From a virus (Duplodnaviria; Caudoviricetes): DNA of 26,024 nucleotides. The stretch lies in IMG/VR virus record IMGVR_UViG_3300030059_002474, positions 1 to 26,024 of that record; one strand, given 5' to 3'. The notes below the pieces were generated by a model, which saw only the letters and a program-made list of their open reading frames with translations, was not told the DNA's origin and did no database searches. Of this stretch, positions 1,951 to 12,683 are shown in pieces (the first letter of the stretch is position 1; every line of letters begins with the position of its first letter). The translations under genes were made by a program, and so were the position numbers.

Positions 1951-3615
1951 ATGGCTAAACCCACTACTACGTTGGTAGCAAATGACCCCATCACGAAAGA
2001 CTTCAGAAAGTTCCTATACATCGTTTGGAAGACCCTCAATTTACCAGACCCAACACCCATTCAATACGACATGGGTAACTATCTTCAGGTAGGCCCAAGG
2101 CGTTGTGTCATTGAAGCCTTTCGTGGGGTAGGTAAGTCATGGATAACCTCCGCATACGTGGTGTGGCTCCTGTATTGTGACCCTCAACACAAGATTCTGG
2201 TGGTGTCTGCATCTAAAGAACGTGCAGATGCTTTCTCAACCTTTACCAAGCGTCTTATCAATGAGATTGAGCTACTTTCACACCTTCGTACCAAGAATGG
2301 TCAGCGTGATTCAGTCATCGCATTTGATGTTGGCCCTGCCATGCCTGACCACTCTCCTTCAGTTAAATCTGTAGGTATCTCAGGGCAGCTTACAGGCTCC
2401 CGTGCTAACACAATAATTGCTGATGACGTGGAAGTTACAAACAACTCTGCAACCCAGACCATGCGTGACAAATTGTCTGAAGCAATCAAAGAATTTGATG
2501 CTATTTTAAAGCCCAATGGACGTGTTATTTACCTAGGTACACCTCAGACTGAAATGTCCATCTACAACCTGCTACCAGAAAGGGGCTACGAGATACGTAT
2601 ATGGCCTTCTCGCTACCCTACGGACAAACAATCTACAATGTATCAAGGAAGATTAGCACCCTTCATAGAGCTTCACAGAACCTCTCAGGAGGGGTTACCT
2701 ACAGAGCCTGATAGATTCACTAAGGTTGATTTAATGGAGCGTGAGGCATCCTATGGAAAGGCAGGTTTTGCTCTGCAATTCATGCTGGACACTACGCTAT
2801 CTGATGCTGATAAGTACCCATTAAAACTCAGTGACCTATGTGTCGCTGCACTCAATCCTAGGAAGGGTTGGGCTGACTTAGCGTGGGCTTCTGGCCCTGC
2901 TCAGATTGTCCAAGAAGTTCCTGTTGTGGGCTTCACTGGTGACAAGTTCTACAGGCCCATGTGGTTCTCTGACGAGATGTATGAGTTCACTGGTGCTGTC
3001 CTTGCCATAGACCCTTCAGGTCGTGGTAAAGACGAGACAGCCTATGCTGTTGTGAAGATGTTAAATGGTTACCTATACGCTTCCCAATGTGGTGGCTTTA
3101 AGGGTGGCTATGATGACCTTACTCTACAAAAGCTTGCCAACCTTGCGAAGATTGAGAAGGTCAACATGATTGTGGTGGAGAGTAACTTCGGTGACGGAAT
3201 GTTCTCCAAGCTACTAGCACCATTTATCAATAAGACTTACCCAGTGTCCATAGAAGAAGTCAGACATAACACACAGAAAGAAGTCCGTATCATTGATACG
3301 CTTGAACCTGTGATGATGCAGCACCGACTTATCATTGATGAGAAGCTGATTAAGGAAGACTACGACAGCGCACCAGAACCTTCATATAGCCTCTTCTATC
3401 AGATGACTAGGCTGACTAAAGATAGAGGTGCAATTGTCCATGATGACCGATTAGAAGCCCTATCAATGGCAGTTAATTACTGGACTGAACAGATGGATAC
3501 TGATGCTGAATCTATGGCTGCTGAACAGAAGCTTGAGGCTTTTAATGGAGAGATTCAGAGGTTCATTGACAGTGCTACAGGTGTCTATAAAAGTGCGGGT
3601 GATAGATGGTTTTAA
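1951..3615 (+). CDS. terL: terminase large subunit (T7 gp19-like)
   Basis: Walker A AFRGVGKS, Walker B IIADDVE, GTPQ coupling motif, nuclease motifs IDPSGRGKDE and HDDRL. Confidence 0.97.
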   Translation: MAKPTTTLVANDPITKDFRKFLYIVWKTLNLPDPTPIQYDMGNYLQVGPRRCVIEAFRGVGKSWITSAYVVWLLYCDPQHKILVVSASKERADAFSTFTKRLINEIELLSHLRTKNGQRDSVIAFDVGPAMPDHSPSVKSVGISGQLTGSRANTIIADDVEVTNNSATQTMRDKLSEAIKEFDAILKPNGRVIYLGTPQTEMSIYNLLPERGYEIRIWPSRYPTDKQSTMYQGRLAPFIELHRTSQEGLPTEPDRFTKVDLMEREASYGKAGFALQFMLDTTLSDADKYPLKLSDLCVAALNPRKGWADLAWASGPAQIVQEVPVVGFTGDKFYRPMWFSDEMYEFTGAVLAIDPSGRGKDETAYAVVKMLNGYLYASQCGGFKGGYDDLTLQKLANLAKIEKVNMIVVESNFGDGMFSKLLAPFINKTYPVSIEEVRHNTQKEVRIIDTLEPVMMQHRLIIDEKLIKEDYDSAPEPSYSLFYQMTRLTKDRGAIVHDDRLEALSMAVNYWTEQMDTDAESMAAEQKLEAFNGEIQRFIDSATGVYKSAGDRWF

Positions 3616-3620
3616 ATGCC

Positions 3621-3643
3621 AATAATATAATTGCATTATAGGG
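3621..3643 (+). promoter_or_regulatory. phage RNAP promoter (phiOR-like position)
   Basis: AATAATATAATTGCATTATAGGG is one of five intergenic copies of the motif and ends in a T7-like TATAGGG. Confidence 0.8.
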
Positions 3644-3662
3644 ATGACAGATATAAGCAACA

Positions 3663-3680
3663 CCTATAGATAACTATAGG
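3663..3680. other. perfect inverted repeat downstream of the right-end promoter
   Basis: CCTATAG-ATAA-CTATAGG. Confidence 0.5.
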
Positions 3681-4012
3681 GTAGCTTGCTCTTGACCCAT
3701 ACATCATGACCATCAGTTTATAACTAATAAGACTACTTACAGGTGACTAATGTAAGGAATAGCTCAAAGACAATGGTAAGCTAACCAAAGGGTCAGTCCA
3801 ACTAATGACTCTACTTGGCCACGGGGTTCTCCAGAACTTCGTTGGTCATACCTTTCTATTTCTATTGGTTTTCTGAAGGTTCTCTGGGAATAATTTGTCA
3901 CAAAAATCTGTGCCGCTATATCGGATAAGGACAAAAGCGTTTACCCCCGTGGCCCACCCGACACAGGCCCGATTGGCAAAATGTGGGGGCGGGGGGTCGT
4001 CTTGTTTAATCC

Positions 4013-4032
4013 TTGCACGATACTTTGCACGA
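4013..4032 (-). repeat. tandem pair of integrase arm-type motifs (12-bp period)
   Basis: The minus strand reads TCGTGCAAAGTA-TCGTGCAA, the same motif and period as the pairs flanking attP. Confidence 0.7.
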
Positions 4033-4062
4033 CCGCCTGTATGCCCCTATTTATAGCCCTGA

Positions 4063-4084
4063 CCGAGAGGTATATCAGCTCTTC
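4063..4084. other. putative second integrase core site
   Basis: CCGAGAGG-TATATCA-GCTCTTC. The left arm is the exact reverse complement of the attP right arm CCTCTCGG (9232-9239), and the spacer is 7 bp. Confidence 0.6.
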
Positions 4085-4195
4085 TTTTAATGCATGACGC
4101 GCGGGGCCGTGTTGACCTTCTATTAGCCATTTAGTCAGCCTGTTTTAATTCCAGTAAGAGGGGGCAAAAAGCTGTTTTTGTTTTTTTGACTCCTA

Positions 4196-4215
4196 AAGTT
4201 ACCCAGAGACAACCA
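4196..4215. promoter_or_regulatory. 20-bp operator-like palindrome
   Basis: AAGTTA-CC-CAGA-GA-CAACCA versus consensus TAGTTGYC-N4-GRYAACTA. Confidence 0.55.
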
Positions 4216-4283
4216 AAAGACACCCAGCCGAAACCCATACAAACTGGGCATCTATCATTTATTTTCACTTAAACATCAAATAA

Positions 4284-4334
4284 TAGTTGCACAACGACAA
4301 CTATATATATCTAATAGTTGCCACTCGGTAACTA
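4284..4334. promoter_or_regulatory. two operators flanking and overlapping the putative sigma70 early promoter
   Basis: TAGTTGCACAACGACAACTA (4284-4303) and TAGTTGCCACTCGGTAACTA (4315-4334); TTGCAC(4287)-N17-TCTAAT(4310). Confidence 0.7.
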
Positions 4335-4360
4335 TATCGAGCAACCAAAGAGGCAACACA

Positions 4361-4576
4361 ATGAAAGCTTATACAACCAGAAACCCAGCCGACCAAAGCG
4401 CACTAAATGCAGTCTGTGAGCAGAACTGCCTGTGGCATCACTTCGACAACTTAGACAGTCCTTTAGCTTATGACGCTTGGGACAAGATGGCTAGAAACCT
4501 TCACAAGCTCCCAGATGAAGATTGGACAAAGCTTGAGATTCAGCATGTTCAGCTTCACGGGTATGGCATCTATTAA
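4361..4576 (+). CDS. first early gene, hypothetical
   Basis: GAGG SD, 71 aa, first ORF after the terminal region. Confidence 0.8.
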   Translation: MKAYTTRNPADQSALNAVCEQNCLWHHFDNLDSPLAYDAWDKMARNLHKLPDEDWTKLEIQHVQLHGYGIY

Positions 4577-4579
4577 TAG

Positions 4580-4630
4580 TTGTTTTGGTGTAGCGGCTTT
4601 CATTCCCCGAAGGCTTCTACCACAAACCAA
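4580..4630 (+). promoter_or_regulatory. long imperfect stem, probable RNase III-type processing site
   Basis: TTGTTTTGGTGTAG...CTACCACAAACCAA pairing, directly before an A/C-rich leader and SD, as in T7 early mRNA. Confidence 0.5.
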
Positions 4631-4657
4631 GTAAACCAACCAAAGGAAGTACAGACC

Positions 4658-4837
4658 ATGAAGTATTCAATCCTAAGCAAGTTAACAGATGACCAGCTTC
4701 GTTCACTTAAAGGCGAGCGTCCAACTATCAAAACCCAGCCCCACTATGTTGAAACCCCTGACTATATCGTAGCCCTAGCAGTGATTACTTTTACTGGTCT
4801 TCTAATGGCTATTTGTTTGTCACCTTTATACCTATAA
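4658..4837 (+). CDS. early hypothetical protein with C-terminal TM helix (start revised to ATG 4658)
   Basis: AAGGAAG SD before 4658; reads MKYSILSKL...IVALAVITFTGLLMAICL. Confidence 0.75.
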   Translation: MKYSILSKLTDDQLRSLKGERPTIKTQPHYVETPDYIVALAVITFTGLLMAICLSPLYL

Positions 4838-4850
4838 CCAAGGAATCATT

Positions 4851-5021
4851 ATGACTTATTCAGAATCAGCCGAAGGCATCATCATCACCCAAAAACGGGC
4901 CTTGCAAGAACTGGCTAAACACGGCTTGGACTTGCCTTCTTCCCATGAAGAATTCTTCACCGATATGGGCAACTACTCACACTATGAAGCCTCTGACGTT
5001 TTGTCATGGCTGGGGTATTAA
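4851..5021 (+). CDS. 56-aa early hypothetical protein (not in ORF track)
   Basis: AAGGA SD; MTYSESAEGIIITQKRALQELAKHGLDLPSSHEEFFTDMGNYSHYEASDVLSWLGY*. Confidence 0.8.
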   Translation: MTYSESAEGIIITQKRALQELAKHGLDLPSSHEEFFTDMGNYSHYEASDVLSWLGY

Positions 5022-5023
5022 TT

Positions 5024-5263
5024 ATGAAATATCAAAAGACCTTAAACATCTGGAAGCTAAGTCAAGAAGAGCGCAGGGCTTTACCTGTTGGCCAGTGGAT
5101 AAGAGCAGGGGAAAGCCGTGACCCACACAGTCGCGGGATTTGGTGTGGTGTCAGTCCAAGCGGTTCTGATGTGGCTGTATGGATGGGCAACATCAAGGGC
5201 TTAAAGGGTAAGGCTAGGGAAGCCCACATCAAACGCTTAATGGACTATGCCAAAGGAATCTAA
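5024..5263 (+). CDS. early basic hypothetical protein (start probably 5024)
   Basis: ATG 2 nt after the upstream stop, with GGGG as SD. Confidence 0.75.
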   Translation: MKYQKTLNIWKLSQEERRALPVGQWIRAGESRDPHSRGIWCGVSPSGSDVAVWMGNIKGLKGKAREAHIKRLMDYAKGI

Positions 5264-5305
5264 GGCTTATCAGGTGGCCTTCTAGCGAGGGTCACTGAGT
5301 AAACC
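5264..5305 (+). promoter_or_regulatory. imperfect stem, probable RNase III-type site
   Basis: GGCTTATCAGGTGGCCTT-ctagcg-AGGGTCACTGAGTAAACC, followed by an A/C-rich leader. Confidence 0.5.
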
Positions 5306-5332
5306 AACAACCAACAAACCGAGGTAGTAAAG

Positions 5333-5521
5333 ATGAAAATAATCAAATCAAAGAAGCTTAATACCAGCATCCATCTTTCTGATGATGGGCGCATGTTCAT
5401 GCGTGTTACTGACTACTTTCACAATCTAGGTGAAGGGTGGCTTGAGTACATCGCAGACCAACACCGCATGGAGGGTGTCTCTTCTCAGATGGCCGCAGAA
5501 CTAGATAATCAAGTCCTATAA
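5333..5521 (+). CDS. early hypothetical protein
   Basis: GAGGT SD, 62 aa. Confidence 0.75.
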   Translation: MKIIKSKKLNTSIHLSDDGRMFMRVTDYFHNLGEGWLEYIADQHRMEGVSSQMAAELDNQVL

Positions 5522-5578
5522 ATCACTCAATTCGCCTGGGGGGAATACCACCCACCCAGACAACCAAAAGGAACTATT

Positions 5579-5944
5579 ATGAGCACTACAGACAACAGAT
5601 TAAAAGACCAAGTTTTATCAATCATCAAAGACATTGAAAACGGGATTCCCGTAACCCAGCAAGATATTGATGATGGCTATTACGATGAAGGCCAGTACGA
5701 AGCGGGTGACACCCTTGGAGCTTGGGACTACATCAAAGATGCCTTAGATGTTGAATACACTGTGAGCGGTAAGAAGGACTATCTAGGGGCTAGCATACTG
5801 GTTGCATTCGGTGGCCCTAACATCACCATCAATACCAGAACCCAACAGGTCGCTGGTCATTGGTGGGGTCAATCTTACGTGGAGTCCTACCACACCGATG
5901 AAATGGAATTAGACAGCATGTGCGAGGAGCTTTTTGGTTACTAA
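5579..5944 (+). CDS. acidic early protein; paralogue of 7160..7831
   Basis: AAGGA SD, D/E-rich, YLGASILVAFGGPNITINT core. Confidence 0.85.
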   Translation: MSTTDNRLKDQVLSIIKDIENGIPVTQQDIDDGYYDEGQYEAGDTLGAWDYIKDALDVEYTVSGKKDYLGASILVAFGGPNITINTRTQQVAGHWWGQSYVESYHTDEMELDSMCEELFGY

Positions 5945-5964
5945 TAGTTGCCATAAGACAAAAT
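5945..5964. promoter_or_regulatory. operator-like site
   Basis: TAGTTG-CC-ATAA-GA-CAAAAT. Confidence 0.5.
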
Positions 5965-5968
5965 TAAT

Positions 5969-5992
5969 AAGGGGGCATTTAGCCCCTTTTTT
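5969..5992 (+). terminator. intrinsic terminator ending the early operon
   Basis: GGGGC-ATTTA-GCCCC followed by T6. Confidence 0.85.
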
Positions 5993-6295
5993 GTGGGCCA
6001 TTGTTTTAAGTGTAACTGAGTAAATAACAAGTGTACCTTGACCTCTAAAGGCTCATAAAATCTGCATTAGCTTTTGTCTTTTAAGGTCAATAAAAATCCG
6101 TATTCATGCATTAACACTATCGTATATGAGGACATACACTTGCGTATAAGGTAATTAAATTTGCGTTTAAGGTTTATATGGGTATCTATGAAATGTCCTT
6201 ACAAGTCATTTTTGACGCCTTAAAATCGAAAGTTACACTTACCAAGTGTATTTTATGACCATAGCTGGTGAGTAAAATGGCAAATATTGGCTAAG

Positions 6296-6397
6296 TTACA
6301 AAAAAAGAACAAACTTATTTATAGTTGGAGAAGTGCAGCCTGTCTAGCCTAGCACCTTGTCAAGACCCACTGGCTAGTTTTTTGGTGATTTAATAGT
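6296..6397 (+). repeat. copy 1 of a ~100-bp imperfect direct repeat
   Basis: Ungapped match to 9744-9845 (offset 3448), with an identical 18-mer at 6296-6313 and an identical 27-mer at 6340-6366. Confidence 0.9.
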
Positions 6398-6463
6398 TGA
6401 TTTTATCTGACCAAATGCCTATATTTCAATCAAGTTATCCAGAAACGCACGATAATTTATGTA

Positions 6464-6490
6464 CTGGCTGTATTAACAGTGTTCCATAAT
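6464..6490 (+). promoter_or_regulatory. LexA-type SOS box overlapping a putative sigma70 promoter
   Basis: taCTG-GCTGTATTAA-CAGt (CTG-N10-CAG, 6464-6479); -10-like CATAAT at 6485-6490. Confidence 0.55.
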
Positions 6491-6565
6491 ATTGGTGTCG
6501 TATGGTAATATAAGAGTCAGCCCCAAAAGGGTTGGCTAAGAGAACTCTCATCTGAGGACTTTTAG

Positions 6566-6727
6566 ATGGTTATAGGTATTATTAGTGTAGTGGTGACGAC
6601 AGCTTATTTAGTAGTTAGTCGCAGTGAAATTAACTTAAACAGCCGTGAGTTTTACATTAGGTTAAACGACAGTCACGGGAAGGAAAAGTGGGCATATTAC
6701 AAGTCATGGGATGGTTACCATGATTAG
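6566..6727 (+). CDS. 53-aa protein with hydrophobic N-terminus (not in ORF track)
   Basis: GAGGA SD at 6554-6558; MVIGIISVVVTTAYLVVSRSEINLNSREFYIRLNDSHGKEKWAYYKSWDGYHD*. Confidence 0.65.
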   Translation: MVIGIISVVVTTAYLVVSRSEINLNSREFYIRLNDSHGKEKWAYYKSWDGYHD

Positions 6728-6761
6728 GTTTTAAATGCCCCAAGCTTAGGGGAATGGAATA

Positions 6762-7133
6762 ATGGACAATGCAGATAGCGACTACGGACGCTTTCAAAGG
6801 GTAATGAAGGGTATCAATGACTCACTCAGTGACATTTCAGAAGAAACCGAAGAATTATCAATAGCCCAAATTAGGGTGCTGATATTTGTAATGCGTAGAG
6901 AAAATGTCACGGGTGCTGAAATAGCAAAGGGTTTAAACCTTTCACGCCCTACAGTGAGCCGTTGCCTGTCCACGCTAGATGTTGATGATAAAGCCAGACG
7001 TAAGAACAAACCGCCATTGGGATTTATAAAACTCATTAAGGGCGACTCCACCACCGATACCAGAAGTAAAACTGCGGTGTTGACTGCAAAAGGTAAGAAG
7101 ATGGCCGAGAGAATCGTTGGGTATTTTGGGTAA
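6762..7133 (+). CDS. MarR-like winged-helix regulator, candidate prophage repressor
   Basis: HTH TGAEIAKGLNLSRPTVSRCL and wing DTRSKTAVLTAKGKK; no autopeptidase domain. Confidence 0.85.
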   Translation: MDNADSDYGRFQRVMKGINDSLSDISEETEELSIAQIRVLIFVMRRENVTGAEIAKGLNLSRPTVSRCLSTLDVDDKARRKNKPPLGFIKLIKGDSTTDTRSKTAVLTAKGKKMAERIVGYFG

Positions 7134-7159
7134 TTGAACTGACTAAAGGACTTAGCAAA

Positions 7160-7831
7160 ATGAGCGATATTAAATTTACAACAGCAGGTGATTATATGAA
7201 TGACGTAGAAGATATAACTCCTGACTATACCGATGCACCTTGGTCGGATGAAAAGGAATATACACCTGAAGAACTTGCTGCAAAAGAAGCAAGCCTTGGG
7301 GCAGTGCTGCAAATGGTTGCCTCTGACCTTAGTGAAGGTATTTTGATTACCGAAGATATGGTTGAAGAAGAGGATGGCGAATATGCCTACCCTGAGATTA
7401 AAGATAGGATTGGTGAATCTATACGCTTTGACGACTACTTGTCAGAGAAAATTATGGCAATTAACTTCTTTACAGAAGAGTGCACGATTAAGAAGGATGG
7501 AAGCATGGACATGATAGGTGCTGAGATTCTTATTGACTACTATGGGACTGAAGTATTTATAGACACGACTTGTAACAGGTTAGTGACTAAGTTTGGGCCT
7601 CTTCATCTTATGACTTATTTTCATGGTGATGAAGATGGCGTTTCCGATACTCATTTTGAAGACCCTATGGACACACGGGGATTTTGTGACTTCTTATGGG
7701 AGCAGGAAGATGTTGACCCAGCTAGTCTGAAAGCCCTTATTATATCTAATGCAGAAGTTTGGACAGAATTGACAGGAAGGCAGCCTTCAAAGTTAATGAG
7801 TTTAGAAAACCCACTGCCACAGGTTCATTAA
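7160..7831 (+). CDS. very acidic hypothetical protein; paralogue of 5579..5944
   Basis: AAGGA SD, D/E-rich, MIGAEILIDYYGTEVFIDT core. Confidence 0.85.
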   Translation: MSDIKFTTAGDYMNDVEDITPDYTDAPWSDEKEYTPEELAAKEASLGAVLQMVASDLSEGILITEDMVEEEDGEYAYPEIKDRIGESIRFDDYLSEKIMAINFFTEECTIKKDGSMDMIGAEILIDYYGTEVFIDTTCNRLVTKFGPLHLMTYFHGDEDGVSDTHFEDPMDTRGFCDFLWEQEDVDPASLKALIISNAEVWTELTGRQPSKLMSLENPLPQVH

Positions 7832-7957
7832 AAACCCAAAGACCGCAGGGTTTAAAATGCGGTCATAACTGAAGTAAGGCCAACACTTGGCCATAACAAT
7901 AGCGGAGCCATTTCAGGCGTAAGCTAGGCTAGTGCAAGGGCCTTTAAGAGAGGACTT

Positions 7958-9157
7958 ATGGCTAGGAAGAAGGTAGAACGGGGCATCTATATGTTGCCTT
8001 CAGGATACCAAGTAAAGGTCACTGTAAAAGGTGTGCCGTTTGATACTTTTGTTGAAGGACACGACATAGTGAAAGCTAGAAGTGTACTGGCAAAAGCTAA
8101 ATCGGATATGCACCTTGGGCTTAACCCAGAGAAGCAAGAAAAGGCTAACTCAGGGCCAAGCATTTATAGTTTGCAAAACGCATACGATGAAACTTGGAAG
8201 CATCAGTGGGCATCTTTATCCAAGGATTATGGAAAGAAGATAAATCAGTATTGGGTGTGTTTTTCATCCTTTGTTCATGACGAATTGAAGTTGACTCGCG
8301 TGGACAAGATAACGACCAAGCATATAGATGAATACGTGACATTTCTGAAGTCTGTTAAAGGCAACAGTGGTTCCACTATTAATAATAAGCTAGGACTCGT
8401 TTCACCAATATTGAAGTTAGCATTTCGTCATAATGTTATAGCGAAAATGCCAGCAATAAAGTGGGAGCCAAAGGGTGAAGCTAGGCTCAGGTATTACACA
8501 CACGTTGAAGAGCAAAAGTTGCTTGAACTTTGTGACCTAATCCACTTTCACGATACGGACATCAACACCTTGCTGAAGGACTTTACTAAGGTTCTATTTA
8601 GTACAGGTATGAGGCCGTGGATGGAAGCACGGAATATCCAGCGAAGTTGGATACGTCAGGACTCTAGTGGCAACACTATATTGGAAGTGCCAAAAGCCTT
8701 CTCTAAGACGAACAGGAAGCGAAGCATACCGATTACTGGTGATGCGCTTGAGGTTCTCTGGAGGCGCGCAAGTGGCCTAGAACGGGACGAATACTTATTC
8801 CACCGCCTAGACTACAAATGGCATTGCAACAGGTTCTGGCAAGAGGTAGTCCGACCCACAATGGGATGGGGCGAAGATGAGGTGTGGTATGGTATCAGAC
8901 ACACATTCGCAACCCGACTATGTGAGTTGAAGGTGAACCTCAAGGTAGTACAGGAACTGATGGGACACACTAACATCAACCAAACAGCGCAGTATGCCAA
9001 GGCAACTGATAACGCCAAGTTTGATGCTATAGACGCTCTATCAGGTATGACAGGACAACGTGAGGAAGGAGCATTAAGCTTCCAAATGTTTTCAAATAAC
9101 GAGCAAAAAGCCGTGCAAAGTGCCGTGCAAAGTTTTGCTGAAGTAAGGGTTGGCTAG
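7958..9157 (+). CDS. int: tyrosine integrase
   Basis: TGMR, SKT, YGIRHTF (Y in place of the H of HxxR), LMGH and TAQY; N-terminal arm-binding-like segment. Confidence 0.95.
   Translation: MARKKVERGIYMLPSGYQVKVTVKGVPFDTFVEGHDIVKARSVLAKAKSDMHLGLNPEKQEKANSGPSIYSLQNAYDETWKHQWASLSKDYGKKINQYWVCFSSFVHDELKLTRVDKITTKHIDEYVTFLKSVKGNSGSTINNKLGLVSPILKLAFRHNVIAKMPAIKWEPKGEARLRYYTHVEEQKLLELCDLIHFHDTDINTLLKDFTKVLFSTGMRPWMEARNIQRSWIRQDSSGNTILEVPKAFSKTNRKRSIPITGDALEVLWRRASGLERDEYLFHRLDYKWHCNRFWQEVVRPTMGWGEDEVWYGIRHTFATRLCELKVNLKVVQELMGHTNINQTAQYAKATDNAKFDAIDALSGMTGQREEGALSFQMFSNNEQKAVQSAVQSFAEVRVG
9110..9133 (+). repeat. attP left arm-type sites
   Basis: Perfect tandem GCCGTGCAAAGT x2 inside the int 3' end. 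Confidence 0.75.
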
Positions 9158-9221
9158 ATGCTTAACCTCACGGGAAACCCAGTGACATCAGGGTGACCAT
9201 CTCTACGATAGCGACCGAATA

Positions 9222-9247
9222 AGGTTCGAATCCTCTCGGGCGCGCCA
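9222..9247 (+). mobile_element. attP core: 3' fragment of a tRNA, probably tRNA-Arg
   Basis: AGGTTCGAATCCTCTCGGGCGCGCCA comprises a T-loop, the 3' acceptor strand and CCA, like proteobacterial tRNA-Arg 3' ends. The 5' half is absent. It lies 65 bp downstream of int. Confidence 0.85.
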
Positions 9248-9310
9248 TTTTAGAGTGTGTTGCAGTGATGCAAATGAGTTTCAAATGAGGGCTAAAAGCC
9301 ACTCTTAAAC

Positions 9311-9341
9311 AAAGACTTGCTGAAAAGCAGGTCTTTTTTTT
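9311..9341 (+). terminator. intrinsic terminator downstream of attP
   Basis: AAAGACTTGCT-GAAA-AGCAGGTCTTT plus a T-tract; it would terminate the reconstituted tRNA transcript after integration. Confidence 0.9.
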
Positions 9342-9382
9342 GCCTAAAATTTAACCCTTCCCCTGTCCTTCATTTCAGGACT

Positions 9383-9406
9383 GTGCAAAGAATCGTGCAA
9401 AGAATC
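9383..9406 (+). repeat. attP right arm-type sites
   Basis: Perfect tandem GTGCAAAGAATC x2. Confidence 0.75.
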
Positions 9407-9743
9407 AGGACACATAATGTCTGATTTTCAATTAGCGTACCCTTACACACTACCCCACCGAAATCCAACTGTAGCACTATAGCTAATCAAAGCTTTGACC
9501 AAAGGTTGCACTATCACAATAGGTAAGCCTTCTATTCCCATTGTCGGCCCTCTTGCTAAGGCATAAATTCTTTTAAGTACCTTATAGGAAAGTTTACTTT
9601 TCGGGTCACTGGGAAGTCGGTATGTCCCTTTGGCACATCGGCATGTCAATAGACGTGCCTCTTGCCACTCACTTACCATATCCAGAGCCTGTCTAGGTTT
9701 GCTGTCAATCCCATATTTTCTCAATCAAAAGCATATGTGTTGA

Positions 9744-9845
9744 TTACAAAAAAAGAACAAATAGGTTTCCACTCGGAGACTCACGGGCTGTCTAGCCTAG
9801 CACCTTGTCAAGACTGACTGGCTGATTTTTTGGTTATTTAGTAGT
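9744..9845 (+). repeat. copy 2 of the ~100-bp direct repeat
   Basis: 27-bp identical core CTGTCTAGCCTAGCACCTTGTCAAGAC at 9788-9814. Confidence 0.9.
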
Positions 9846-9867
9846 GCGCAAAGTTTATTTCAACCTG

Positions 9868-9893
9868 TATAATTAGTTGTCTTTCGACATCTA
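9868..9893 (+). promoter_or_regulatory. sigma70 -10 element with an operator over the start site, upstream of RNAP
   Basis: TATAAT (9868-9873) abuts TAGTTG-TC-TTTC-GA-CATCTA (9874-9893). Confidence 0.65.
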
Positions 9894-9951
9894 TATAAAC
9901 GCATCTTAGGAGAGCCTATGAACCAGACATAAACCCCCGCAGTTAGTGACC

Positions 9952-9974
9952 AATAATTAAATTGCATTATAGCC
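9952..9974 (+). promoter_or_regulatory. phage RNAP promoter upstream of the RNAP gene
   Basis: AATAATTAAATTGCATTATAGCC. Confidence 0.75.
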
Positions 9975-10010
9975 TACGAGAATCGGCAGACCAGCGAAGC
10001 TGTGCCTATA

Positions 10011-10030
10011 AGTTTGTCTCTAGGTAACTA
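10011..10030. promoter_or_regulatory. operator-like site in the RNAP leader
   Basis: AGTTTG-TC-TCTA-GG-TAACTA. Confidence 0.55.
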
Positions 10031-10055
10031 TAAAACCTTAAAATAGGAGTGACAA

Positions 10056-12644
10056 ATGTCACAAGATAACTCTACATCCATCATCAATGATGACAATACA
10101 TTATTTGATACACAGCTAAACATAGAGATGACTATGAGGACTGAAGGTATTGAAAAAATGAAACGCAGCATCAACAAAAACCAACAAACTAGAGGTGAGT
10201 CAGGAACAGAATATGGTCACACTTTAATGGTTGAGGGTCTTCATAGATTTGCTGTTGGTGTCCAAGAATGGTTTGACCAACCTGTCACTGCTGGAAGAGG
10301 TTCACGTGTCCATAAAATTCTAAAGGGTGGCGATGCTGAGGTGATTGCTTATGTGTTTATGAAGTCCGTCATCAATGGTATTTCATCAAAGACATTCACT
10401 TTACAGAATGTCCAAAGAGCAGCAGCAGGTCATGTAGAAGATGAATTTCGTTTGGCTATGGTCAGGGAAGAAGATAAGGCTTTGCACCAACGATTAGTTG
10501 ACGCAGCGAACAAGCGAATTGGTTGGGCGAAGCGAGACACGTTGATGAGCGGTATGAAAGATGCAGCCTCTAAACGTAAAATCTCACACTGGCAAGATTG
10601 GGATGGTAATACCACCATTCACGTAGGTTCAGCGTTACTAACAATACTGATGGAAACTGTAGGTCTAGTAAAGATTGTCACTGAGTCTGCTGGCAAGAAC
10701 AACAAGGTTAAACGCTTAATGGCGACAGATGAAACACTGGAATGGATTACAAGGCGCAGCGATAAAGCTGGCCTAACCACACCAGTGTATAAGCCCCTTG
10801 TTATTCGTCCCAGAGATTGGACTTATGAGAACTTGACCGATGGTGTTTACTACACCCGTCATAACCGCCCAGTGAAGTTGGTTAAGTCCAGCAACAGGGC
10901 TTACTTTGATGAACTGAAACACGCTGACATGGATGTAGTTTTGTACTCAGTAAACGCTATGCAGGGGACTGCTTGGTCAGTCAATAAACCAATACTCAAA
11001 CTTCTTACAGAGATGTGGGAAGCGGGAATTGATTGGTGTCCTTCTATCCCTTCACGTCACAATCAAGAAGAGCCAGCAAAGCTTGAGGACTACGACAACG
11101 CTTCTATAGAAGAACGTGCTGCCTATGCTCAAGAACGAAACCTTGTTCGCATAGCTAATCGTGAGGAAATGTCTAAACGCTTTGCTTACGTTTCGCTGGT
11201 GGACACAGCAACAGAGTTTAGTCAGTACGATGAGTTTTACTTTGGGATGCAGTTAGATTTCAGAGGTCGTGTTTATAGTGTGTCCTCTTATAACTGTTTA
11301 GGGCCAGATGAAATGAAAGCCAGCTTACAGTTTGCTAAGGGTAAAGCCTTGGGCAAGGATGGATGGAAATGGCTGGCCACTCAATTATGTAACGTAGGAG
11401 ATTTTGACAAGATGTCTAAGGCTACATTTGAAGAGCGTGTTCAATGGGTCATGGACAATGAAGATTGGATACTAGACTGCGTAGAAAACCCTTGGGAAAA
11501 CCGCAGGTGGGCAGAAGCTGACAAGCCGTTCCTATTTATGGCTGCTGCAATTGAGTGGAAAGGATTCCTAGAACAAGGGGATTCATTCGTGTCTCACATT
11601 GCTGCATCACTTGATGGGTCGTGTTCAGGTCTTCAGCATTTAGCTATGGCTATGAACTGCAAAACGACTGCTAGAAGTGTCAACATCCTTCCCAATGATG
11701 TGCCACAAGATGTCTATCAAATCGTGGCAGACAAGGTTACAGCTCGCCTAGTGGAGGACTCACAGAAGTCATTTGAACATTGGGGTGAACCTGTCCTCAA
11801 TAACATGGGTGTGCGTGTGCCTTGCTACACTGAGTTGGCCTTAGAATGGTTGAAGTATGGGTTCGGGCGTAAAGAGGCCAAAACTTCAACAATGACTTAC
11901 AGCTATGGCTCAAAGCAATATGGTTTCAAGACTCAAATCCAAGAGACTGTCATGAAGAAAGCTAAAAAAGAATGTGCCAGAACAGGCCAGGATTTTCCAT
12001 TCTCTTATGATGGTGGTTATCGTGCTTCTAGCTACATAGCTCGGCTTCTTTGGGATGCGATAGTTGATACAGTGAAACGCCCTGCTCAGTTGATGGAGTG
12101 GCTAACACAAGCTGCAAGTAAGGTCGCCAAGACTAAGTTCGTCATGCGAGATGGTTCTAAACAAACTATGCCTGTGCGTTGGACTACACCTCTAGGTTTA
12201 CCTGTCCTTCAGTCGTATTACAACATGGAGACTCGCAGGGTTCGCACCAGTATCAATGGCACGATTGTGTACATGAACAGTAACTCACCACTTGACCAAA
12301 TTTGCAGTCGTAAATCTGCTCAAGGCATGAGTCCGAATTATGTTCATTCGCTTGATTCTAGCCATCTGATGCTGGCAGTAGCGAGGGCTAAGGAAGAGGG
12401 GATAGATGACTTCATGCTTATCCATGATTCATTTGGGACGCACTGTGCAGACACTGGACGCTTTGGTGGAATCATTCGTGAGGCTATGGTTGAAATGTAC
12501 TCTAACAGTGATGTGGTTCACGCACTTTACCTAGAGTTAAGGGCGCAGCTTTTACCTGAAGACATGGATGACTTTGCTCTACCTCCAGCCAAAGGCAACT
12601 TGGTATTAACTGACTCACTTGAGTCCCGTTATTCTTTTGCCTAA
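10056..12644 (+). CDS. single-subunit T7-like RNA polymerase (gp1)
   Basis: DFRGRVY, DGSCSGLQH, RKEAKTSTMTYSYGS, PNYVHSLD and IHDSF. Confidence 0.99.
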   Translation: MSQDNSTSIINDDNTLFDTQLNIEMTMRTEGIEKMKRSINKNQQTRGESGTEYGHTLMVEGLHRFAVGVQEWFDQPVTAGRGSRVHKILKGGDAEVIAYVFMKSVINGISSKTFTLQNVQRAAAGHVEDEFRLAMVREEDKALHQRLVDAANKRIGWAKRDTLMSGMKDAASKRKISHWQDWDGNTTIHVGSALLTILMETVGLVKIVTESAGKNNKVKRLMATDETLEWITRRSDKAGLTTPVYKPLVIRPRDWTYENLTDGVYYTRHNRPVKLVKSSNRAYFDELKHADMDVVLYSVNAMQGTAWSVNKPILKLLTEMWEAGIDWCPSIPSRHNQEEPAKLEDYDNASIEERAAYAQERNLVRIANREEMSKRFAYVSLVDTATEFSQYDEFYFGMQLDFRGRVYSVSSYNCLGPDEMKASLQFAKGKALGKDGWKWLATQLCNVGDFDKMSKATFEERVQWVMDNEDWILDCVENPWENRRWAEADKPFLFMAAAIEWKGFLEQGDSFVSHIAASLDGSCSGLQHLAMAMNCKTTARSVNILPNDVPQDVYQIVADKVTARLVEDSQKSFEHWGEPVLNNMGVRVPCYTELALEWLKYGFGRKEAKTSTMTYSYGSKQYGFKTQIQETVMKKAKKECARTGQDFPFSYDGGYRASSYIARLLWDAIVDTVKRPAQLMEWLTQAASKVAKTKFVMRDGSKQTMPVRWTTPLGLPVLQSYYNMETRRVRTSINGTIVYMNSNSPLDQICSRKSAQGMSPNYVHSLDSSHLMLAVARAKEEGIDDFMLIHDSFGTHCADTGRFGGIIREAMVEMYSNSDVVHALYLELRAQLLPEDMDDFALPPAKGNLVLTDSLESRYSFA

Positions 12645-12683
12645 TAGTTGTCGTACGACATTAATGTTGTCTAGTAACAACAG
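12645..12683. promoter_or_regulatory. two adjacent operator-like palindromes
   Basis: TAGTTGTCGTACGACATTAA (12645-12664) and ATGTTGTCTAGTAACAACAG (12664-12683). Confidence 0.6.

Follow-up and report, generated by a model that had tools for sequence, protein, structure and literature searches.

Background

T7-like phages carry blunt linear genomes with short direct terminal repeats (160 bp in T7) and without cohesive ends, and many of them integrate, including abundant phages of SAR11. Integration of a whole genome needs a circle. Phage lambda closes its genome by annealing of the cos ends and has a single phage att site; its integrase reportedly also recombines two attL sites by a 'bent-L' pathway. 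Cre of phage P1 is an arm-less recombinase. According to PMC11437467, which cites Hochman 1983, Cre closes the linear virion DNA of P1 through twin loxP sites in the terminal redundancy, the ends are permuted and the prophage is a plasmid. Lambda-type integrases require 7 bp of overlap identity, as stated in a figure legend of PMC1807965. In the temperate T7-like phage LUZ100, transcription of int and the MarR gene starts from a promoter of the host type (PMC10134795). The portions of the literature on temperate T7-like phages that were covered mention neither a second Int site nor a route of genome closure, and the papers on the pelagiphages, LUZ100 and S-TIP37 do not use the word 'circular' in their main texts. 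Literature searches, which covered main texts and few subscription journals, returned no paper that describes an integrase site within the terminal repeats of T7-like phages.

In this study, a 26,024-nt stretch of phage DNA (the window) was analysed, and a locus at 4011-4082 was compared with these systems. On the sequence comparisons given below, we put the probability at roughly 70% that 4011-4082 is a second integrase recombination site, at which Int would circularise the genome by joining its two ends, ahead of integration. Such a system would share with P1 Cre/loxP a tyrosine recombinase that closes linear DNA via twin sites in repeated ends. It differs in that the ends of the window phage are fixed, whereas those of P1 are permuted, and in that Cre is dedicated to its task, whereas the window phage has a site with arm motifs and, as far as the window shows, a single integrase gene, which has a tRNA attP to serve as well; neither a dedicated arm-less recombinase nor a plasmid prophage of the P1 type was found for the window phage, of whose genome the window is a part. 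The proposed system is like P1 circularisation in its working, is not Cre/lox, and puts lambda-type parts to a new use. A predicted three-domain Int, arm-type and core-type sites and a 7-bp overlap are shared with lambda, and the end site is built like attL; lambda differs in its closure by cos and its single phage att site, and no IHF consensus was found between the arms and core of the window end site. With other temperate T7-like phages (HTVC019P-type pelagiphages, LUZ100, Pasto, ProddE, S-TIP37 and P-SSP7), the window phage has in common the order MarR-int-attP before the RNA polymerase gene, a tRNA target and short direct terminal repeats, and several of these phages carry the end site, unannotated. 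The end site is a real group-wide feature of temperate T7-like phages for which the literature covered gave no description, and an earlier one may exist.

Genome organisation, integrase and attP

The features discussed in this study are as follows.

1951-3615, plus strand: terminase large subunit gene (terL), PHROG 38, E 1e-116; last gene before the inferred genome end
3902-3918, plus strand: T7-type motif just outside the inferred left repeat end; the same 9-mer and spacing precede the T7 repeat
3919-4190, no strand: inferred direct terminal repeat of ~270 bp, from the depth step and the T7-type end motif
4011-4030, minus strand: arm-type motif pair with 12-bp period; 4023-4030 exact, 4011-4018 with one mismatch to the 8-mer
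4066-4082, no strand: core-type site, with AGAGG at 4066-4070, a 7-bp overlap at 4071-4077 and GCTCT at 4078-4082
6762-7133, plus strand: gene of a MarR-like regulator upstream of int, PF12802 (E 1e-7), PHROG 9665
7958-9157, plus strand: tyrosine integrase gene (399 aa), PF00589
9113-9132, plus strand: left attP arm pair inside the int 3' end, 12-bp-period motif
9220-9247, plus strand: attP core and tRNA-Arg 3' end; the overlap 9225-9231 is the tRNA T-loop
9383-9402, plus strand: right attP arm pair, 12-bp-period motif
10056-12644, plus strand: T7-type RNA polymerase gene, PHROG 414, E 4e-221

Judging by its terL, MarR-like gene, tyrosine integrase, tRNA-Arg attP and RNA polymerase, the window phage is a temperate T7-like marine phage. 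The window spans the ends of a T7-like genome and runs from holin, terS and terL across a non-coding stretch and small early genes to the MarR-like gene, the integrase, the RNA polymerase and T7 replication genes; int and attP thus lie upstream of the RNA polymerase in a T7 gene order. A single integrase gene was present among the 40 ORFs scanned in the window, which is part of the genome. Close relatives are marine metagenomic contigs, and blastn of 3400-9960 against cultured phages returned nothing beyond a 100-bp terL match. No RNA genes were detected by ARAGORN or Rfam in the window and in 3600-10100.

Residues R219, K250, Y311, R314, H337 and Y346 of the integrase were invariant in an alignment of 21 sequences and form the R-K-(H/Y)-R-H-Y catalytic set. 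The nearest cultured integrases, mostly from integrase-bearing T7-like phages, are at most 33% identical. In the structure model, whose mean pLDDT is 81, the N-terminus folds into a small domain of a beta-sheet plus helix, and the top Foldseek match of the model was full-length lambda Int (1z1b), aligned from model residue 7 over 298 residues (Z 15.9, rmsd 14.4). Pfam gave no match for residues 1-61. Judging by the model, the N-terminal domain is likely an arm-binding domain. Residues 367-399 are variable and modelled with low confidence, and the coding 3' end contains the left attP arm pair.

A search of 300 other genomes (one order) found 17 with bacterial tRNA-Arg genes that contain the attP 25-mer at 9223-9247 without mismatch. 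The T-arm of the host tRNA-Arg reads AGAGG-TTCGAAT-CCTCT in 13 of 13 copies read, with the left half AGAGG in all, and attP itself has two mismatches to the host core AGAGG-N7-CCTCT. CAAAT(G/A) repeats with a 10-11-bp period lie on both sides of the attP core (9083, 9093, 9271 and 9282); they are kept in relatives with different arms, are absent from the gap between arms and core of the end site, and are candidate sites of an excisionase or an accessory factor. Clade prophages were absent from the genome contigs searched, where one phage contig within a bin was the only find. That contig (L104 / G001:C452, Int 46%) belongs to a bin titled Bermanella sp. and carries attP; it had no host tRNA match within the Bermanella sp. 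bin, and the host is thus not proven by the bin.

The candidate second integrase site

The motif GTGCAA-N6-GTGCAA, which was defined from two of its three window copies, occurs exactly three times in the window, at 9113-9130 (plus), 9383-9400 (plus) and 4013-4030 (minus), against 0.01 in shuffled sequences; the recurrence of the attP arm pair on the minus strand near 4013, as given in the preliminary description, was thereby confirmed. At 4063-4070, the sequence CCGAGAGG matches the reverse complement of attP 9232-9239 exactly. Just two exact copies of CCTCTCGG occur in the window, namely, attP 9232-9239 and 4063-4070 on the minus strand. The end-site overlap differs from the attP overlap at 5 of 7 positions. 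The same description had placed such an exact core half and a different 7-bp spacer 30 bp from the arms; the core half and the spacer stood, and the gap was corrected to 32 bp. Its minus-strand order of spacer, core half and arm pair, which is that of the right half of attP, was also found.

The conserved core half comprises 5 bp (AGAGG/CCTCT), and the additional CGG is specific to the window lineage. At up to one mismatch, the host-tRNA core AGAGG-N7-CCTCT occurs once in the window, at 4066-4082. This single match is within chance for a 26-kb window (0.77 expected), and the significance of the core therefore comes from its position and its recurrence in relatives. The locus has inverted core halves around a 7-bp overlap, as in lambda-type sites, and arm-type repeats in fixed orientation that it shares with attP (one fixed-window variant of the arm test was not significant). 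An IHF consensus was not found within two mismatches between arms and core in the window. Across phages, an IHF site within one mismatch was present in 3 of 16, against a background of 39 of 634; an IHF site first seen there by eye was dropped because it was not enriched over background.

Position within the terminal repeat

The T7 repeat is preceded by a 9-mer and 8 bases, and the same 9-mer at 3902 places the left end of the repeat at 3919; a related motif is present in relatives, and a T-rich motif at 4174, near the inferred right end, is also conserved in them. Contig depth in run X1 was 10.4 before the step and 20.5 after it, with a variant adding 6.7 (3919-4065), followed by 17.3 (4036-4251) and 12 from 4222; in run X2 it rose from 51-54 to 121 plus 35 (3919-4039), followed by 65, 59 and 48; in run X4 it was 83 over 3893-4365 against 52 downstream, and run X3 showed little step. 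All of these values were averaged per contig and stem from a single study, possibly of the source sample, and a strain bubble falls at the 3919 step. Of the two repeat ends, the left one (3919) can be placed well and the right one (4160-4190) approximately. The roughly twofold depth step at 3919 and the T7-type end motif put 4011-4082 inside the inferred repeat, in agreement with the earlier claim that the site lies within the terminal repeat.

Stronger support for this position than the depths give comes from the annotated repeats of cultured phages, which measure 244 bp in LUZ100, 271 bp in ProddE, 271 bp in Pasto and 281 bp in vRsoP-WF2. The 12-bp-period pair lies inside the annotated repeat, at positions 90-132, in all four cultured phages with such an annotation. 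Site 4011-4082 is thus likely inside the terminal repeat and hence present twice on linear virion DNA, the evidence for the window itself being indirect.

Cultured phages and integrase-less controls

Among 14 cultured integrase-bearing T7-like phages, nine had, as judged by eye, arms and a core like their own attP together with a different spacer (Lo5R7ANS, RHEph01, ProddE, Pasto, CRP-171, CRP-804, CRP-118, HTVC119P and HTVC200P). Arms were present in LUZ100 and BB8, with a weak or unresolved core; vRsoP-WF2 had an arm pair without a matching attP and no resolved core; HTVC021P, with a short Int of 290 aa, had the core only; and S-TIP37 had no clear end site. The cleanest case was Lo5R7ANS, in which 13 of 14 flanking bases equal attP and 5 of 7 spacer bases differ. 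For Lo5R7ANS and CRP-118, the repeats were read before the attP regions were fetched, and the two matched.

Correspondence between the end site and the phage's own attP was evaluated by scripted self-versus-cross permutations, for which all windows were chosen after seeing the data. The observed correspondence was reached in 0 (arms) and 20 (cores) of 100,000 permutations for 25 phages, in 0 and 14 of 100,000 for 18 less related phages, and in 2 of 100,000 in a relaxed arm test of 21 phages. A stricter blind core test of 15 phages was not significant (13,307 of 100,000), because the filter removed several cores. A core test anchored on the tRNA loop gave 22 of 100,000 for nine phages and 161 for seven; individually, three of the nine beat all background windows and two did not stand out. 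The cores of LUZ100 and HTVC119P scored no better than background windows. Most self-versus-cross tests were therefore significant (p ~1e-3 to <1e-5), and two variants were not.

The layout was absent from all five integrase-less controls, namely, four pelagiphages and T7. The integrase-less pelagiphages keep both end signals and lack the core. All four scored 6 of 10 against the HTVC021P core, for which HTVC021P itself scored 8; with certain cores of other phages, repeats of integrase-less phages attain 8-9 of 10 by chance, and a single core match is therefore not specific. CRP-118, initially a control, proved to encode an integrase and was then counted with the test phages. Inverted repeats around a 7-bp spacer were rejected as sole marker because unrelated ones occur in T7 and HTVC142P. 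Taken with the arm classes described below, these comparisons bear out two expectations of the preliminary description, that attP motifs co-vary with a copy in the terminal repeat of integrase-bearing relatives and that the site is missing from relatives without int.

S-TIP37 speaks against circularisation at the end site, as it integrates without a clear site. It integrates through Int and attP, and no stable lysogens were found according to PMC8776855. The want of stable lysogens would fit a need for the end site, as one case.

Variation among close relatives

The search for loci with TerL at least 78% identical gave 47; no end motif was detected in 9 of these, and the sequence of 4 stopped short of the site. 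The 34 kept represent 31 distinct contigs, window included. The core was found at up to two mismatches in 33 of 34 loci and at up to one in 30 (0.02 per repeat expected at one mismatch), and in nearly all of them at repeat positions 122-162; it was scored on the same ten columns, so the conservation of these columns is partly by selection, which does not apply to the constant position. Spacers took 15 forms among 20 distinct sites, all at least 3 positions away from the attP overlap, and 17 forms among 30 sites once metagenome loci were included, with no form identical to that overlap. L047 and L048 (no end motif found) and L034 and L099 (no anchor) were left out. Among distant metagenomic phages, L046 and L069 were without signal and L060 had the core only.

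Phages of the clade have one attP core in common and different arm sequences, and the end-site arms follow the phage's own attP. Class 1 comprised the window, L001, L150 and L151; class 2, L004 and L159; class 3, L017, L032, L038, L042 and L091; and class 4, L183. Matching to the own attP by shared 5-mers anchored on the core was equalled in 1 of 100,000 permutations for 11 phages and in 137 of 100,000 for seven classes. The co-variation appeared only in the attL-like orientation, with no signal in the opposite one. A fixed-window version of the arm test within the clade was not significant (7,188 of 100,000), and the arms of L176 fit their own attP poorly. Co-variation of bases between the arms, seen in the window and L001, failed in L151 and was rejected.

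In L041, arms and core are missing as one block and both end signals are kept. Relative to L042, ~140 bp with arms and core are absent at ~4840 of L041, and L080 ends near the same point. The junction is known from one 5-kb contig, and five related records are fragments; the missing block may reflect a deletion that exists in nature or a fault of assembly.

A spacer changing faster than its flanks was not supported as a general pattern (2/56 versus 66/1,280, p = 1.0, in eight disjoint close pairs). A clear spacer swap was seen in one case only. The repeats of L024 and L030 are 97-99% identical to those of L027 and L029 left of the core, and 5 of 7 spacer bases differ. A mosaic between the window and L150 was considered as a crossover at the spacer and discarded, as the break lies ~13 bp beyond the core.

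Proposed mechanism and alternative explanations

The end-joining role that had been proposed for this integrase is supported by the site in the inferred repeat and by the co-variation in relatives, from which we infer the circularisation itself. Both virion ends would carry an identical copy of the site, each attL-like with a core and one arm pair. DNA of T7-type phages enters the cell slowly and left end first, and uptake of the right end must therefore continue even when the phage is set on lysogeny. Int would be made early and, after the right end has entered, would bridge both copies; strand exchange across the identical overlaps would yield a circle with one repeat and, as by-product, a discarded fragment of ~270 bp that contains the former ends. 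Integration of this circle by attP x attB at tRNA-Arg would follow, and the overlap mismatch would block cross-reactions between the end site and attP or attB. The same reaction may also excise unit circles from concatemers. As the partners at the end site would always be twins, its overlap would be free to drift, whereas the tRNA loop holds the attP overlap constant.

For temperate T7-like phages as a group, the balance of the comparisons leans towards a single integrase with two insulated reactions, in which twin attL-like ends circularise the genome before tRNA integration, the drifting overlap would act as a self-recognition code that separates the two reactions and the ends of different phages, and the site, not int alone, would enable lysogeny. 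The 70-bp end site would then be a candidate for the missing circularisation step. If this is true, a lambda-type integrase has two natural jobs kept apart by overlap sequence alone, the attL x attL geometry is a normal step of a life cycle, and the site can serve to recognise truly temperate T7-like phages by sequence and, paired with its Int, as a compact tool for engineering.

An unlikely alternative is that Int recombines the site on concatemers or circular dimers, arising from replication or after excision, and that RecA closes the incoming genome through the repeat. Identical chemistry and an identical sequence signature would be expected, and T7-type replication makes concatemers through the repeats. 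A repeat of ~270 bp could be closed by RecA as well, which counts against a need for closure by Int. Recombinases of plasmid prophages are thought to resolve dimers (PMC8026635), and the end site resembles XerCD/dif and phage Xer-like dimer resolution in that a tyrosine recombinase would act on directly repeated twin sites; it differs in matching the motifs of its own attP, in having arms and in sitting in the terminal repeat. A site for resolving multimers could be anywhere, yet it stays at repeat positions ~70-170 in phages whose hosts belong to several bacterial classes, although the repeat offers little room, and no form of the genome but the linear one holds the site twice.

Binding of Int without recombination, which would protect or anchor the ends or act on packaging or on early promoters as a regulator, is quite improbable. 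Operator-like palindromes and likely early promoters 200-250 bp away would suit such a role, and a variable spacer is also compatible with a dimer site; however, binding would need neither two inverted core halves at 7-bp spacing nor an arm pair in attL orientation, nor an overlap unlike attP in all 15 types counted. It is very doubtful that the site is kept in reserve for attachment at other targets in the host or is the leftover of a half-attP duplication. The site does resemble half of attP and is lost in one relative (L041), but the DNA between core and arms has no similarity to attP, with a gap of 32 rather than 143 bp, a conserved host target would not fit such a variety of spacers, and the arms and cores change along with the integrases as these diverge. 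That the motifs match by chance or belong to the packaging signal, already disfavoured, can be set aside almost entirely: in one window, chance could account for the core by itself, and short repeats are common near T7-type ends, but the arm-pair shuffles, the recurrence of the core, the self-versus-cross and within-clade tests and the core-free ends of the integrase-less pelagiphages argue against it.

Further features of the genome

A conserved 21-23-bp motif has five copies, at 3621, 9952, 12697, 14387 and 23769, in T7-like promoter positions, and is likely a promoter of the phage RNA polymerase. Other elements were noted at 4283-4304, 4314-4335 and 9873-9894, with weaker ones at 5944-5965 and 12644-12665. 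The 223-aa ORF at 7160-7831, between the MarR-like gene and int, is without a PHROG match and has a faint Pfam match only. A module swap was observed immediately right of attP when L001 and L002 were compared with the window, as Int is 92-99% identical and the RNA polymerase only 68%; TerL of L001 and the window is 99% identical. The MarR-orf-int-attP module is flanked by a 102-bp direct repeat (6296-6397 and 9744-9845, 80% identical), a possible control element or boundary of module exchange, which is also present in L001, L002 and L008.
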